The notes below the pieces were generated by a model. The model had not been told where the DNA came from, ran no database searches, and saw only the letters and a list, made by a program, of their open reading frames with translations. Shown here in pieces: positions 5,893 through 50,620 of a stretch of DNA of 62,352 nucleotides. The DNA is taken from positions 1 to 62,352 of the forward strand of contig JAQTPV010000001.1 of the NCBI GenBank assembly GCA_028712605.1, read 5' to 3'. Position 1 is the stretch's first letter. Every line of letters starts with the position of its first letter. The position numbers were made by a program, and so were the translations under genes. The stretch is from Minisyncoccota bacterium. Lineage in GTDB: Bacteria > Patescibacteriota > Minisyncoccia > Minisyncoccales > CG1-02-41-26.

Positions 5893-6153
5893 TTAAAGTT
5901 GGATTATATAAAGCCCTTTTTCCTCAATGTTTTGTTTTTGGCCGAAGTCGTTGAGGTTGAATGCCATCACATACTTAACTGTTTTCTCTAGAATGCGACC
6001 TGTATATTTCTCGGTTTCTGGGTCCCACTCCTCTAAAATTAAGGTGTCGCCTTCCTGAACATCAAAATCAGCCAATCTCAAATCAAAATTTTTCTTGCCA
6101 GTTTTCACCAGCTCAAACAATTCCGGCCAAGCTTTTTTTCTAATAGTTGCCAT
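5893..6153 (-). CDS. DUF3850 / ASCH-like (PUA-fold) small protein
   Basis: 86 aa. KKAWPELFELVKTGKKNFDLRLADFDVQEGDTLILEEW matches the pattern I recall for DUF3850 (ILPEYFEAV.SG.KTFE.R.NDRDF.VGD.L.L.E). Confidence 0.65.
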   Translation of the reverse strand: MATIRKKAWPELFELVKTGKKNFDLRLADFDVQEGDTLILEEWDPETEKYTGRILEKTVKYVMAFNLNDFGQKQNIEEKGLYIIQL

Positions 6154-6296
6154 ACCCCGTAGAGGAATTTCGGCAAAATAATTTAGTTATTTTTATAAAC
6201 TATTTAACCCTGAATTCCTCTTTACTTTAATATCCTACCCCCGCTTGGATTCGCCAATTATTTTAAATAACTTGCCGAAATTCTCCTACGGGGCAT
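6154..6296 (-). promoter_or_regulatory. Leader element, copy A (paralog of 49324-49478)
   Basis: The first ~65 nt on the minus strand are ATGCCCCGTAGGAGAATTTCGGCAAGTTATTTAAAATAATTGGCGAATCCAAGCGGGGGTA. By eye they are ~85% identical to the plus-strand copy at 49324. The 5' arm (6272-6293 on plus) and the 3' arm (6155-6176) are a 20/22 inverted repeat, and the 3' arm abuts the start codon at 6153. Confidence 0.5.
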
Positions 6297-46275: not shown

Positions 46276-46809
46276 CTAAATTTTACTACTTTTCTTTTTT
46301 AAAAACAACCAAAACAAAGACACGACTGCAATCGCCAGCAAAAAAAGCGAGGCCGGCAAAGTAAAACGCCCCTGCCAGAAAGAAGCAAGCGCCGCCAAAA
46401 GAAAGGGGCCGTTTCTTTCATCAAGAATAATCTGTAAAGGAATCTTAACACCCGAGTTGGCTTTCATCATAGGCTCCCCAACAAGGGGTTTGGCCACCAC
46501 CGAAAGATAAGTGGCGAAGACTCCAGCTTCTCGGCTTTTTATGGTTATGGCTACTTTTTTTGACTGGCCGCCCTCCAAAACAAAGCTTTCAGGCCTGGCT
46601 TTGATAATTTCAGAAAAACTATCAGGGTAAACTTCAAATAAGGCAACCTTATTATCTGGATTAGTAATCTCTATTTCTTTCTGAATCAAAACGTTAGCTT
46701 GACCATTTATATTTAGCGCAGCTGGACTAACCTTCAAGGAAACGGCCTGGGCAAGGCTGCAAACTAAAAGGGAAAAGAAAATTAAAACAACGATTAAAAA
46801 GTTTTTCAT
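46276..46809 (-). CDS. Hypothetical cell-surface protein (signal peptide, beta-rich domain, C-terminal TM anchor)
   Basis: The layout resembles DUF916-type surface proteins. This is weak and rests on architecture only. Confidence 0.45.
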   Translation of the reverse strand: MKNFLIVVLIFFSLLVCSLAQAVSLKVSPAALNINGQANVLIQKEIEITNPDNKVALFEVYPDSFSEIIKARPESFVLEGGQSKKVAITIKSREAGVFATYLSVVAKPLVGEPMMKANSGVKIPLQIILDERNGPFLLAALASFWQGRFTLPASLFLLAIAVVSLFWLFLKKKSSKI

Positions 46810-48614
46810 TGTTTAATAGCCCAAAAAGTAATCTCTCCTTTATTTAATCCAAAGTTACCTTGATAACTTAAGGGAATAGACAACTGCAAGGGCAAGGTTT
46901 GGCTTTTATTAGGGGTCAATTCAAGGCTAAAGGTATTCGGTCGCAATCCCGCAATAGATAAATTATCTCTAAAGATACCGGACCCAACCACTTCTGCCTC
47001 TAAAAAAACACCCATAGAACCATTATTGATACTTAAGGTAGTGGATGATTGCTGGCCGGGCCTTAACGTACCAAAATCTAGCTGATCAGGGCTAACTGAA
47101 AAGCTAATGATTGATTGGTCGCTTTCTGGTGGAACAGGTAACTTTTCAATATTAACGACCAATTGAGCCTGGTGCCCCATTGGAGCTATTCCAATTTTTA
47201 AATTTTCCTTAGGACTTCTTAAATAGCCCCTACCCTGCACAACCTGTTTTTCTAAAAACACTGGATAAAGGCCATCGGCTAAAATCTGTTGGTTAATTTC
47301 TACGGCGCCTAAAGCATTGGTTGTGAAATCAGAAGACCCTATCTTGATTTTCAGGGCTTCTATCTTTAAATCCTGCCAAGCACTTTGTTGCGGGTCCAAA
47401 AATTGAGTCTGTATTTTGATATTCTGATCGGCTTGGGAGACAATCAATTTAGTTAAAAACCAACCCTCCTCTAGCCACTCTCCAGAATACCAAACTACTT
47501 CATCATTGGGATCCAAAAAATAATTATCAGCCCCCACCTGCGGCGATAGACCGTTGACTAAGTACATCCAATTATTTTCATGGCCAATGCTATCTAAATA
47601 AAGCCCGAGGCCGGAAAACTCCTTAATATTATAATTGAAACCGCATTGTAGGGCACCCGAGGAAATCAGATCCAAGGCCGTTGCCCCGTTGACTTGAGCG
47701 TCACAAATAGTATTCTCCCCCTCAATCCTTAGATGATGCAAATTGAGATCGGTGGCAACGGGGTAAAACTTACCCAGTAAGGCCACCACCGCAAAACTGG
47801 TACAAAACTTATTATCGCCTGACTTTTGCCACCAAAAACCACCATCTGTATCCTGCAGTGATTGTAAAGATTGAACGGCGTGATGACCATTTTTGAACCA
47901 AGCGCTACCAAACGGATCTTGCTGCAGCTTATAAACAGCCGAGATAACCCAAGCATCAGAACAAGAATCAGAAACAGAACCTGCTGAATAAGGAAATCCT
48001 CCATCTTCATTTTGGGTTGATTTTAAATAAGCAGTCGCTCTTTGGACGGCCCCTGAAGTGTCAGCCGCTCCCGCTTCCTTTAGTGCCATAATGGCTGCTG
48101 CTGTATCGTTAGTATCGGAAGTAGCAGAAATGCTATACCCCCAGCCGCCATCTATATTTTGGTGGCTTAAAATATAGTCTTGGCTTGCCTGCACTTGACC
48201 TAACTGATCTTGCCCTAAAGCACCCAGCGCCAAAATGGCCCAAATATCATCATTTAATAAGTTAACATCGCCAAACTGATTATTCTGATAAAAGCCCTTT
48301 AGTTTTTCTACATAATTCTCATTACCAAAGTTAGTTGGATTTTTACCGACTGCAGTTAAAGCTAGAATATACTTGGCGTACCCTAGGGCTGTTTTTTCAT
48401 TCACGCTTTGCAAAAAACTTAAATCAAGATTAGTTTCACCAGCAGAAGTTAAGGCCATCAGAGACCAAGCGTCAAAAGGCTGACTCCTAAGATAGGAAAC
48501 GCCCTTTTGGGCTTGAGATTGATTACCCGTATCAACTTGAGCTAATCCAAAGGTTAAAAACAAAAAGCCCGCAATAATCAATAGGGCTAAAACAAGAAAA
48601 AATTTATGGCGCAT
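46806..48614 (-). CDS. Secreted prenyltransferase/squalene-oxidase-repeat protein with a DUF4430-like domain and a C-terminal beta-sandwich region
   Basis: Repeated QN.DGGWGY / QNEDGGFPYS / QDTDGGFWW motifs (alpha/alpha-toroid repeats). NWMYLVNG....GADNYFL.PNDEVVWYSG resembles DUF4430. The track start at 48671 is a TTG, so I use the ATG at 48614. Confidence 0.65.
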   Translation of the reverse strand: MRHKFFLVLALLIIAGFLFLTFGLAQVDTGNQSQAQKGVSYLRSQPFDAWSLMALTSAGETNLDLSFLQSVNEKTALGYAKYILALTAVGKNPTNFGNENYVEKLKGFYQNNQFGDVNLLNDDIWAILALGALGQDQLGQVQASQDYILSHQNIDGGWGYSISATSDTNDTAAAIMALKEAGAADTSGAVQRATAYLKSTQNEDGGFPYSAGSVSDSCSDAWVISAVYKLQQDPFGSAWFKNGHHAVQSLQSLQDTDGGFWWQKSGDNKFCTSFAVVALLGKFYPVATDLNLHHLRIEGENTICDAQVNGATALDLISSGALQCGFNYNIKEFSGLGLYLDSIGHENNWMYLVNGLSPQVGADNYFLDPNDEVVWYSGEWLEEGWFLTKLIVSQADQNIKIQTQFLDPQQSAWQDLKIEALKIKIGSSDFTTNALGAVEINQQILADGLYPVFLEKQVVQGRGYLRSPKENLKIGIAPMGHQAQLVVNIEKLPVPPESDQSIISFSVSPDQLDFGTLRPGQQSSTTLSINNGSMGVFLEAEVVGSGIFRDNLSIAGLRPNTFSLELTPNKSQTLPLQLSIPLSYQGNFGLNKGEITFWAIKQ

Positions 48615-48942
48615 AATGAAAAATCCCGCTTCAAGCGAGATGGGGGTTAGATCATTTAAGTTATAGCTCAAATGGTTAACCTCTCTTTGCTCGAAGAGAA
48701 AATAATTAACAGCTGCTTAATTAATCGGACAATTAAGCTTAAGGGCATTCTGGCTTCCCTGAAAGTTTTGAAAACTGACAGGGTTACAGTTGCGGCACAG
48801 CTCCGGATTCACACCGGATTCCCCCTTCAAGTAGGAAGGACTATCAAGCAGTGTTAATTGTAACGATTCAAAAGATAAAGTCAAGCTATTGGTTGCCTCA
48901 TCAAAAAAGAGGTGGTACAATAAAAATATAATTACTAAAACT

Positions 48943-49284
48943 ATGCCAAAAGAAACAAAAGAAAAAACACCCAAAGAATCAGCCGGCTGGAAAAAGGGTT
49001 TAAGTGGTTTGATAGAAACGCTTACCCAGCAAGCCACTAACTCTATTATTGAGCTTACCAAACATTCTATCCATCAAATCAATGAAGAAAAGAATAAAGC
49101 GGTAGCTAATTTTAAAAGAATGGTTATTTCTTCCATCTTGATGGGCGTAGGGTTTGTATTTTTATTGGTTGGCATCGCAATCGTTATCAACGAATACTTC
49201 ACCGCCCGAAATTCGCTTGGTTATATCTTGGTTGGCCTAGCTGTAGTGATTGCTGGTTTATGGATAGGGCGCAAAAAATCGTAA
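48943..49284 (+). CDS. YqjE/DUF1469-like (holin-X-like) small membrane protein
   Basis: Charged N-terminus followed by two hydrophobic helices (ISSILMGVGFVFLLVGIAIV, GYILVGLAVVIAGLWIG). It precedes a DUF883-like gene, as in yqjD-yqjE-type loci. Start moved to MPKETKE. Confidence 0.5.
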   Translation: MPKETKEKTPKESAGWKKGLSGLIETLTQQATNSIIELTKHSIHQINEEKNKAVANFKRMVISSILMGVGFVFLLVGIAIVINEYFTARNSLGYILVGLAVVIAGLWIGRKKS

Positions 49285-49323
49285 TTATACGTAAAAAGGT
49301 TGACAAAATAATTCAATTGAAAT

Positions 49324-49478
49324 ATGCCCCGTATGAGAATTTCGGCAGCTATTGAAAATAATTGCTAAATCCAAGCGGGGATAAATAAAAAATCAATGAA
49401 TTCTCCCATAGAAGAGCGAAGCTCTCTATGGGACTAATCCAGCAGACAGCTTCGCTGTTCTGCTGGGTTCTACGGGAT
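49324..49478 (+). promoter_or_regulatory. Leader element, copy B (paralog of 6154-6296)
   Basis: ATGCCCCGTATGAGAATTTCGGCAGCTATTGAAAATAATTGCTAAATCCAAGCGGGGATA..., then two strong hairpins (CCCATAGAAGAGC-GAA-GCTCTCTATGGG and CCAGCAGACAGC-TTCG-GCTGTTCTGCTGG). It ends CTACGGGAT just before the ATG at 49479. A TTGACA box lies at 49300. Confidence 0.5.
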
Positions 49479-49709
49479 ATGGCTAAAAAACAAATAGATG
49501 TAAAAAACGTCCAAGAACAAATGAAAGTGCTTCAGGCTAAAGCTGAAAAAGAAATTGAAAAGGTTAAAAAAGACTTAGAAAAAGCTAAAAACCAGGTAGA
49601 GGGCTTTGTGAAAAAGAATCCTGAAAAGGCAGCTTTAATTTCAGCTGGCATTGGCGTAGCCCTTGGGGCAGTTATGACAGCTTTGATGAAGGGCGGCAAG
49701 AAAAAATAA
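49479..49709 (+). CDS. DUF883 (ElaB/YqjD-like) membrane-anchored stress protein
   Basis: Coiled-coil N-terminus and C-terminal NPEKAALISAGIGVALGAVMTAL anchor. Start moved to MAKKQ at 49479. Confidence 0.6.
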   Translation: MAKKQIDVKNVQEQMKVLQAKAEKEIEKVKKDLEKAKNQVEGFVKKNPEKAALISAGIGVALGAVMTALMKGGKKK

Positions 49710-49728
49710 TTTTTCTCTTTGATATTAA

Positions 49729-49757
49729 AAAGGCGGCGGGTGTTACCCGCCGCCTTT
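49729..49757. terminator. Bidirectional intrinsic terminator (perfect 13-bp GC-rich stem)
   Basis: AAAGGCGGCGGGT-gtt-ACCCGCCGCCTTT, between convergent genes. Confidence 0.8.
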
Positions 49758-49769
49758 AGTTCATAAAGA

Positions 49770-50186
49770 CTAAATAAGTTTTTCTAAAGACAGGCTATCG
49801 GCTGGAACTCCTTTAATAATGTAGGCTGAAAAAATCAAATCAGGGAATTCGTCAGCCAGCAGTGATTTTATTTTAGATAGATCACTCGCTTGGGTTTTGT
49901 ACTCTTGATCAACGTCAGGAACCCCATAGGCGCCGCAATTGTCGTGGTATAGCATAACGACTTCTTGAATATTATGTAGTTGTTGGGAAAGTTTAATCTG
50001 CTTGATTAAAAAATCACGCTCGCCTGATTTATCAGACAATAAATCCTTACAGGCCCCCGCAACCGAAACTAAATCGTAAGATCCTTCAGAATAACCAACC
50101 CGCATCAACAATTGGCTTAAAATGCTGGGCTTAATACGAAAATCCATACAGCGAAAAACCAAAGCCCCACAACGATGATTAGTCAT
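49770..50186 (-). CDS. Small beta-carbonic-anhydrase-like protein (last gene after atpC)
   Basis: RCMDFR (C-x-D-x-R) and YHDNCG (H-x-x-C) match the zinc-ligand motifs of beta-class carbonic anhydrase. At 138 aa it is shorter than typical enzymes. Confidence 0.5.
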   Translation of the reverse strand: MTNHRCGALVFRCMDFRIKPSILSQLLMRVGYSEGSYDLVSVAGACKDLLSDKSGERDFLIKQIKLSQQLHNIQEVVMLYHDNCGAYGVPDVDQEYKTQASDLSKIKSLLADEFPDLIFSAYIIKGVPADSLSLEKLI

Positions 50187-50191
50187 ATTTT

Positions 50192-50620
50192 TTAATTTAT
50201 ATTTATGCTTCTACTTTTATGTCTTCTAACTACTTTAAGCCGGGCCAGCTCTTTCTCCAGATTAGAAACCAAGGCGGCGTTATCAACCATTTCCCGGCTG
50301 GCCGTTTTCATCATCTCTTCGGCCCTTCTTTTTGCTTCCTCGGCACGTTGTTCATCAATCTCGTAAGCATGCTCGGCCGTGTCAGCTAGAACTACAATTT
50401 CATTTTTCCCCACTTCTATTAAGCCACCGGAAACTGCCATCGGAATTTCTTTTTTGTTTTTTTTAAGCAACAACTCACCAGGCTTTAAAACAGAAACCAA
50501 AGGAATATGTTTTGGTAAAACCGTTATCTCCCCCTCGCTCGTAGGGAGAGTGGCTTGGTCAACCTCGTCCTCAAAAACAATTCTCTCTGGGGTGACAATT
50601 TTAAACTTGATTTTTTCCAT
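50192..50620 (-). CDS. atpC: F-type ATP synthase subunit epsilon
   Basis: KIVTPERIVFEDEVDQATLPTSEGEITVLPKHIPL, with a C-terminal helical hairpin. Confidence 0.9.
   Translation of the reverse strand: MEKIKFKIVTPERIVFEDEVDQATLPTSEGEITVLPKHIPLVSVLKPGELLLKKNKKEIPMAVSGGLIEVGKNEIVVLADTAEHAYEIDEQRAEEAKRRAEEMMKTASREMVDNAALVSNLEKELARLKVVRRHKSRSININ

Follow-up and report, generated by a model that had tools for sequence, protein, structure and literature searches.

The closest described counterparts of the sequence analysed here are the Correia elements (NEMIS) of Neisseria, non-coding repeats of about 100-160 bp with terminal inverted repeats (TIRs) of about 20-26 bp that occur in many copies, lie next to genes, are co-transcribed with these as long leader hairpins, and are present or absent at a given site in close relatives. 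Hairpins of the Correia type serve as substrates of RNase III and influence gene expression (PMC2649163, PMC10969869). Small, structured, dispersed repeats of other kinds, namely, ERIC/IRU, RUP, BOX, MIRU and the Rickettsia palindromic elements, also populate compact genomes, and some of these are tolerated within transcription units and even within genes. We know of no report that any of these latter repeats is systematically placed on start codons, with the ATG regenerated through a target duplication. Here we analyse a 151-nt sequence that directly precedes the start codon of a gene for a 76-aa protein in a 62,352-nt stretch of DNA (hereafter, the window) from a Minisyncoccota bacterium of the Patescibacteria. 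The first-pass annotation considered this sequence to be a structured regulatory leader, one of two paralogous copies. We conclude, with high confidence, that it is a non-autonomous, palindromic DNA transposon similar to the miniature inverted-repeat transposable elements known as MITEs, in a composite variant that we denote B type. The family to which it belongs is widespread in this order of Patescibacteria and, apparently, undescribed; a literature search on MITEs in Patescibacteria retrieved no paper.

The analogy with the Correia elements is one of behaviour, without sequence similarity, and matches neither the 26-bp Correia repeats nor the Neisseria host. The Correia elements duplicate TA and have a link to IS630-like transposition, whereas the present family duplicates 4 bp, prefers T|ATG start codons and TTGA|CA -35 boxes, shows a fixed polarity at start codons, and has full-length relatives that encode a GIY-YIG protein rather than a DDE transposase. 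The repeat sequence and the spectrum of 4-bp duplications also distinguish the family from the ERIC/IRU, RUP, BOX, Rickettsia and MIRU repeats. The GIY-YIG homing endonucleases, such as I-TevI, and the Slx1/UPF0213 (YhbQ-like) proteins share the PF01541 domain with the open reading frame (ORF) of about 90 codons in these relatives, and free-standing homing endonuclease genes likewise are the sole gene of a mobile unit. However, homing endonucleases spread through double-strand break repair into the cognate allele, without TIRs, target duplications or miniature derivatives, whereas the ORF found here lies between 20-bp inverted repeats flanked by 4-bp duplications, at many unrelated sites.

Empty sites in a related species

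A genome of the same genus, G001, provides orthologous loci for comparison. Window segments 48903-49312 and 49477-50614 match contig C56 of G001, where they are separated by 13 nt, compared to 164 nt in the window. The uninterrupted G001 sequence reads ...AAAAAATATG followed directly by GCTAAAAAA..., whereas in the window ...GAAATATG is followed by the element (CCCCGTA...CTACGGGA), then by TATG, and only then by GCTAAAAAA... The element inserted into the T-ATG of the 76-aa gene after the split from the sister species, and the gene kept a start codon right behind the element because the TATG was duplicated. The distal TATG (49323..49326, + strand) marks the original T-ATG of the gene, and the proximal one (49478..49481, +) holds, judging by the comparison with G001, the real start codon, ATG 49479-49481. 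The G001 orthologue starts with MAKK... at the corresponding ATG, and homology ends there. The choice of 49479 over an upstream ATG at 49428 as the true start, made already in the first-pass annotation, is borne out by this comparison; position 49428 is inside the inserted element.

Altogether, empty sites were found in G001 at all four testable loci, namely, those of the 76-aa gene, infC-rpmI, the DUF3850 gene (located in G001:C17) and a membrane protein gene that follows a tRNA. The five loci other than that of the 76-aa gene were queried as a concatenate, and two were untestable, being at contig ends or missing in G001. The family model produced zero matches in G001, and no element was found upstream of infB in six further relatives. 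Between the host species and G001, the orthologous DNA around the sites shows 70-88% identity, less than the 87-94% that the five B-type copies of the host genome share with one another. The empty sites and the similarity among the copies together fit spread after the species split, with duplication of TATG, rather than descent from an old regulatory leader. The conservation in relatives that would be expected of a leader is not observed either at the orthologous loci of G001 or before infB in the six relatives.

Six copies in front of six genes

We searched the complete set of 62 contigs of the host genome (773,536 bases, 40.7% G+C). The 5' block of the element, ATGCCCCGTATGAGAATTTCGGCA from 49324, recurs within the window at 6271-6294 on the minus strand with 3 mismatches, where shuffled sequences yield 0 expected occurrences, in agreement with the earlier observation of a block common to copies A and B. 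The notion of a paralogous element thus holds, but the count of two copies does not: the genome contains six full copies and two shorter relatives. Five copies are of the B type and adjoin, respectively, the ATG of the 76-aa gene (copy B, in the window, contig C59), infB (C38), rpmI, between infC and rpmI (C34), a gene for a 122-aa membrane protein, just past a tRNA (C37), and a gene for an unannotated protein of 122+ aa that has no Pfam match and runs off its contig (C36). The sixth, copy A (C59, 6155..6293, minus strand, 139-nt body), is of the A type and adjoins the ATG of a DUF3850/ASCH gene (5893-6153). Both infB and rpmI are single-copy genes in this genome.

All six copies start with (A/T)TG-CCCnGTA and end with CTACnnGn-T-ATG, the last ATG being the start codon of the gene, and all six have the same polarity relative to the gene. 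Five are flanked by TATG on both sides, and the sixth by TTTG and TATG. In copy A, the terminal repeats are continuous over 21-25 bp, with TATG on both flanks. The five other copies inserted in the same manner as copy B, at infB, rpmI, the DUF3850 gene and two unknown genes. The family displays the hallmarks of MITEs, namely, small non-coding size, TIRs, target duplications, and dispersed copies with empty sites. Two short members of the palindromic family with GTAGTAGAA-type arms are located at 23090-23127 of C37 (38 nt) and 5638-5704 of C21 (67 nt), neither of them at a start codon.

Anatomy and fold of the composite element

The 151-nt body of copy B (49327..49477, +) is non-coding and is alike in all five B-type copies; the only ORFs within it are a 14-codon upstream ORF (uORF; MPRMRISAAIENNC followed by the stop), which is opened by the ATG of the distal TATG, and a frame running through the hairpins. 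A uORF of 10-14 codons is present in every copy. On the plus strand, the body begins with the 5' TIR CCCCGTATGAGAATTTCGGCA (49327..49347), which is conserved family-wide. Next, in the minimum free energy fold, come an AU-rich hairpin and a degenerate inner 3' arm, TGCTAAATCCAAGCGGGG (49345..49380), which together with the 5' repeat form a 'mini-element' of about 54 nt; this is the local pairing noticed previously, and the same layout is present in long-form relatives. In the C34 and C36 copies, the inner arm is CTACGGGG, identical to the terminal motif. The A-rich linker that follows (49381..49404) ends with AATTCTC, which is complementary to the GAGAATT of the 5' repeat, and we interpret this heptamer as the displaced inner half of the 3' repeat of copy B.

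The linker leads into hairpin 2 (49405..49432; CCCATAGAAGAGC-GAA-GCTCTCTATGGG), of which the 12 bp and the GAA loop were described previously; it has one bulged A and a CCCATAG head, and the spurious ATG 49428 falls inside this hairpin. Hairpin 3 (49439..49466; CCAGCAGACAGC-TTC-GCTGTTCTGCTGG) also has 12 bp, with one bulged U and a CCAGCAG head. The second 12-bp hairpin of the first-pass annotation is thus real, but the UUCG tetraloop assigned to it resulted from transcribing an extra G; the loop is a UUC triloop in copy B, and it varies among the copies (UUC, UUU, UCC). Both hairpins are mini-palindromes that carry the head motif of the family. The body closes with the outer remnant of the 3' TIR, GTTCTACGGGA (49467..49477), which pairs with 49328-49334, and the tail GGTTCTACGGGAT runs straight into ATG 49479. 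Hairpins 2 and 3 split the 3' repeat of copy B into AATTCTC ... CTACGGGA and replace most of the spacer that is found in the long forms.

The stems of the two hairpins are well maintained. Hairpin 2 is 100% paired in all copies, with compensatory changes relative to a homologous module in the G177 genome, where a pair homologous to hairpins 2 and 3 sits within an element of the 83-nt type. Across the five distinct sequences of hairpins 2 and 3, 24 of 24 pairs are retained, with 5 compensatory changes, and both single-sided stem changes yield G.U on the sense strand. The two ends of the element also vary in concert: among the six copies, the base that precedes CCCG, also designated position 4 of the element, shows covariation (C-G, U-A, A-U) with the one just ahead of the proximal TATG.

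These features can be compared with those expected of a dedicated cis-regulatory RNA leader, such as a riboswitch, thermosensor or attenuator, in which the 5' block would toggle between pairings and control a small regulon. As noted in the first-pass annotation, TACGGG next to the ATG is complementary to CCCGTA in the 5' block, and GAATTCTC (49398-49405) is complementary to GAGAATT in the same block; thus, the 5' block can indeed pair with the ATG-proximal sequence. Like riboswitch and attenuator leaders, the element has a 5' segment that can pair in two ways, but not in both at once, and one of the two pairings includes the region of the start codon; furthermore, the copy B stretch folds at -59.1 kcal/mol (z = -5.4 against shuffles), and the copies lie directly before the start codons of genes that lack a Shine-Dalgarno (SD) motif. 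However, the alternative pairings exist because the 5' arm can pair with either the degenerate inner or the outer 3' arm, and the complementary segments are best read as TIRs with nested mini-palindromes rather than as an evolved switch. A leader is not expected to be missing from orthologous loci or to be flanked by target duplications, and the paralogues are nearly identical even in loops and linkers. Relatives of the element are found in either orientation, as nested copies, on -35 boxes and behind genes; the lack of SD motifs is genome-wide; and neither the two copies nor typical relatives match Rfam 15 at the gathering score or even at E<=10. No conserved unpaired nucleotides resembling a ligand pocket were identified, the conserved segments being accounted for by the terminal repeats. 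We regard a dedicated regulatory leader as highly improbable. The proposed co-regulation of the DUF3850 and DUF883-like genes by such a leader is unsupported on the same grounds, namely, the four empty sites, the TATG duplications, and the six unrelated genes downstream of the copies.

The TTGACA at 49300-49305 upstream of the element, which the first-pass annotation had pointed out, is present in the sequence. At the same position, the element-free G001 orthologue reads TTGAAC, so the motif belongs to the host flank. When this TTGACA was considered as a promoter of the element, the scan gave no -10 box at the proper spacing.

A family of palindromic elements across the order

Relaxed searches in relatives detected the same terminal sequence in both orientations, in some cases nested, with variable interiors. 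In an alignment of 14 diverse members, the TIRs span 21 bp and are 88.6% paired; compensatory changes affect 9 of the 21 pairs, and one A.C mismatch never varies. The covariance model R1, built from the arms, has matches in 102 or more of the 401 genomes of the order and in 83 of the 246 genera; with 8 candidates scored per genome, this census is a lower bound. A pattern census of 14 genomes yielded 5-34 elements per genome, nearly always as inverted arm pairs 40-160 nt apart. Exact patterns of the B type or of the 5' repeat were found neither in other genomes nor in the JGI metagenomes, and a scan of all genomes with a 17-nt pattern produced mostly chance matches, with just four real loci, labelled Patescibacteria or Saccharibacteria. 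The interiors of the elements differ between subfamilies, and the conserved sequence is that of the terminal repeats themselves.

A typical member is about 78 nt long and consists of a CCCnGTAG arm, a 7-8-bp hairpin, a 4-5-bp hairpin and the second arm. Long forms of about 130-157 nt were found in many genera. In the orientation of the gene, these consist of the distal duplication, the 5' arm, a hairpin, a degenerate inner 3' arm (...TACGGGG), an A/T-rich spacer, the proximal arm, and the N-ATG of the gene; copy A shows exactly this layout. The two arms of the family differ consistently, one being of the KGAGA/AAG/TAG type and the other of the AGAGG/AGA/TGA type, and this asymmetry gives rise to the invariant A.C mismatch or to opposed bulges (family alignment A4; loci L151-L179). 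With respect to the arm asymmetry, either of the two interior hairpins can come first, as though the interior could flip.

Perfect 4-bp direct repeats flank 46 of 61 elements that were sampled from 8 genomes rich in such elements. The duplicated sequence is TTGA/TCAA in 14 elements, TAAA/TTTA in 13, TATG/CATA in 10, and CAAG/CTTG in 4. These repeats bear on another possible affiliation, with REP/BIME-like or IS200/IS605-type hairpin elements that move as single-stranded DNA, mobilized by a Y1 or RAYT enzyme recognising GTAG-headed hairpins. The GTAG head and the nested palindromic units, namely, hairpins 2 and 3 with their CCnGTAG-like heads, resemble such elements, and a fixed polarity would fit strand-specific insertion. 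REP and IS200/IS605 elements, however, generate no target duplication and enter beside a fixed tetranucleotide, whereas the present elements are bounded by perfect 4-bp repeats of varying sequence; moreover, they are whole palindromes with terminal rather than subterminal repeats, and the only ORF found in elements with the same ends encodes a GIY-YIG rather than a Y1 protein, although PF01797 was not searched for. An origin of this kind seems scarcely probable.

Target sites and polarity

The elements show a preference for motifs at the beginnings of genes. Among the 61 sampled elements, 11 directly adjoin the initiation codon of an ORF that is 60 aa or longer, with the ATG inside the duplication, and start-codon adjacency is observed for 8 of the 10 elements with a TATG duplication. 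Among the long forms, 12 of 19 adjoin gene starts, with N-ATG duplications, and the genes include those for uL22, uS12, MurA, MetK and HisRS. In the host genome, about 370 TATG sites are located at predicted starts, compared to 763 at other non-coding positions and 4,313 that touch coding DNA, so the placement of all six copies at starts is far from random. The other preferred target is the promoter: in 13 of the 14 elements with a TTGA duplication, this tetramer opens a -35 hexamer, TTGAC(A/T/G), and a -10 box follows 16-17 nt further downstream. Such cases are found among loci L236-L295 (for example, L252, L257 and L288), with promoters of the TTGACA-N16/17-TATAAT-like form in which the duplication restores the -35 box. 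The polarity seen in the host genome recurs elsewhere: the long forms that adjoin starts in other genera all have the same polarity relative to the gene (14/14).

GIY-YIG-encoding relatives as candidate parents

In the 14 genomes, the two arms of a pair are 40-300 nt apart, and arms that look solitary have a degenerate partner close by. One such 'solo' arm, in contig C8 of the G062 genome, has its partner about 300 nt away, and the resulting element, of about 301-316 nt by two measures, has the same TIRs, with TAATG on each side. Its single ORF encodes a 92-aa protein with the Pfam GIY-YIG catalytic domain (PF01541, E 9.4e-16). Of 301 genomes of the order, 149 encode homologues of this protein. 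Repeats of the same family enclose the 10-11 closest ones, forming elements of 301-321 nt, mostly with TATG flanks, whereas more distant homologues have different inverted repeats. The elements with the close homologues mostly adjoin host start codons (DnaE, uL10, bL33 and others); the GIY-YIG ORF is co-directional with the host gene, and its stop codon is at the start of the proximal repeat, about 20 nt before the host ATG. This ORF of about 90 codons is the sole one found within elements with the same ends, PF01797 and the DDE families not having been searched for. No arm pairs of insertion sequence (IS) size were detected in the 14 genomes (the DDE and Y1 transposase families were not searched for), and the short spacing of the arm pairs rules against an IS-sized autonomous partner.

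We advance a proposal that we hold tentatively, at somewhat less than an even chance: the MITE-like elements could be miniatures of an undescribed class of minimal transposons, of about 0.3 kb, that combine a GIY-YIG (Slx1/UPF0213-like) transposase, directional homing onto starts and -35 boxes, rebuilding of the motif that is struck, and hand-over of ribosomes. Under this proposal, the nuclease of about 90 aa would act as the transposase, making 4-nt staggered cuts, and would home onto T-ATG starts and TTGA-CA -35 boxes in compact genomes without SD motifs. The duplication would rebuild the struck motif, such that essential genes (infB, rpmI, dnaE, ribosomal protein genes) survive the insertion, and ribosomes from the ORF or uORF of the element would be handed over to the host gene. 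On our main interpretation, too, the non-autonomous copies would be mobilized in trans, through a 4-nt staggered cut, by the GIY-YIG protein or by some other enzyme.

Other GIY-YIG sequences are present in the host genome. At about 5000-5190 of C24, there is a 5'-truncated GIY-YIG element that retains ~55 C-terminal codons along with its right repeat, TTCGAAATTCTCATACTGGG; it adjoins the TATG of an rpmG/bL33-like gene (MAKKKKQTMAKMQCESCKE...), just downstream of two tRNA genes. At about 25250-25600 of C40, an intact GIY-YIG ORF of about 85 aa is lodged inside a tRNA gene, the 5' part of which (GCCGCGGTGATGGAACTGGTATTCATGCACGAC...CTCAAAATCG) is duplicated on either side, resembling a different, tRNA-targeting GIY-YIG insertion. 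At 2140-2395 of C37, a 79-aa GIY-YIG ORF is located between perfect 13-bp inverted repeats, CCCCCTCCTTTTA and TAAAAGGAGGGGG, which represents a second family of GIY-YIG mini-elements, of about 250 bp and with other ends.

Several observations weigh against our interpretation of the sequence as a MITE-like transposon. Because the 3' repeat is split, the B-type copies are not textbook MITEs. The fixed polarity (6/6 and 14/14) is not predicted by random, DDE-like insertion, and hints at either function or directional targeting. No intact GIY-YIG element with B-type ends is present in the host genome, and to our knowledge, GIY-YIG nucleases are not known as transposases. The sequencing runs that contain the locus are DNA only (landfill, wastewater), with no RNA and no empty-site reads, and the Logan contigs end inside the repeat. 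Finally, the start region behind the element is predicted, at equilibrium, to be mostly paired, with a mean unpaired probability of about 0.23, which makes the translation of essential genes such as infB puzzling. Mainly on account of the polarity and the start-site preference, the element cannot be considered a wholly ordinary MITE.

Expression of genes located behind the elements

The first-pass annotation emphasized that the two genes then considered lack an SD motif. The motif is, indeed, missing, but this is not a specific property of these genes: SD-like motifs upstream of the 593 predicted genes are at the background level (15.5% versus 14.8%). The starts show a different context genome-wide, with T at -1 in 64% of the cases and A-rich positions -3 to -5. 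No 16S rRNA 3' end could be located in the host assembly; in a survey, anti-SD loss was frequent in a subgroup of Parcubacteria (PMC9297842). A scheme in which all genes are leaderless was considered and rejected, given that just about 15% of the genes show a -10-like peak at 6-8 nt ahead of the start codon. In the relatives, infB is preceded by TTGAAA-N17-TAnnAT located 6-8 nt before the ATG and looks leaderless.

In the host, element and gene would be transcribed together, the element forming a structured 5' leader with a short uORF. Despite the predicted pairing, the start codon could become accessible in one of three ways: ribosomes on the uORF opened by the distal ATG might melt the 5' arm; the 5' arm might fold locally during transcription; or the leader might be processed by an RNase III-type enzyme, by analogy with the Correia elements. 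For the last of these, the analogy renders RNase III processing a plausible fate of the present elements. Direct coupling of the uORF to the gene was considered for the MITE copies and rejected, as the uORFs stop about 100 nt upstream of the gene.

These considerations lead to the question of whether, MITE origin notwithstanding, the elements have been kept at starts for a role in expression, so that the six genes share post-transcriptional control. In such an exapted mobile leader, either the uORF opened by the distal ATG would couple ribosomes to the gene, or RNase III would cut the repeat helix, leaving a short leader. The uniform polarity, both here and in the start-adjoining long forms of other genera, is compatible with exaptation, as are the presence of the uORF in every copy and the preserved pairing of hairpins 2 and 3, with compensatory changes and with G.U pairs where only one side has changed. 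Furthermore, half of the six genes relate to translation (coding for IF2, L35 and possibly a ribosome-associated ElaB-like protein), the layout of the GIY-YIG ORF relative to the host ATG suits termination-reinitiation, and the Correia elements offer a precedent as RNase III substrates (PMC2649163, PMC10969869). However, the sister species appears to express the same genes without the element, and the distance between the uORF stop and the gene makes direct coupling unlikely in the MITE copies. Nor does the polarity confer any detectable advantage: under equilibrium folding, the mean unpaired probability of the start region is 0.23 in the actual orientation and 0.24 in the flipped one, and the spacers of the long forms contain no sense-biased sigma-70-like promoter, the best scores being 8.35 in the sense and 8.7 in the antisense direction and falling at inconsistent positions. 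The gene set is mixed, and a targeting of genes with high transcription could account for the part that relates to translation. Exaptation thus seems unlikely to us, although considerably less so than either a dedicated leader or a REP-like element. The MITE-like element is, rather, probably a tolerated passenger than a purpose-built regulator.

Gene neighbourhood

The 76-aa gene (49479..49709, +) encodes a helical protein with a C-terminal membrane anchor, a layout similar to that of ElaB/YqjD. The protein had been assigned to DUF883, but it does not match Pfam DUF883 (PF05957) at E<=0.01, and the resemblance is limited to this layout and to a weakly YqjE-like neighbour. The neighbour is a 131-aa membrane protein (48889-49284, +) with a weak PF07332/YqjE-type match (E 8.5e-4, below the cut-off). 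The genes for the 131-aa protein and the tail-anchored 76-aa protein form a pair that recalls E. coli yqjE-yqjD, and the pair, with its 40-nt spacer, is kept in G001. A cobalamin riboswitch (RF00174, 48723-48864, minus strand, 44.9 bits, E 4.8e-8) is located directly upstream of a 621-aa gene (46806-48671, minus strand) and only about 25 nt away from where the plus-strand 131-aa gene begins.

Implications

For annotation of the window, the outcome is straightforward: 49479 is the start of the gene, and the ORF from 49428 is a spurious one. Comparable 'leaders' that precede infB, rpmI and further genes of Patescibacteria should be masked as repeats and annotated neither as regulatory RNAs nor as N-terminal extensions. 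More generally, no less than a quarter of the genomes sampled in this order carry these tiny mobile elements. It is unusual for insertions to fall, in a fixed direction, exactly on the start codons and -35 boxes of genes that are essential. The elements provide a handle on translation initiation in organisms without SD-led initiation. The feature is, then, a MITE-like element in which both the insertion habit and the candidate parent are unusual. If GIY-YIG proteins do mobilize these elements, they would represent a new catalytic class of transposases, and the elements that encode them would be among the smallest autonomous transposons known.

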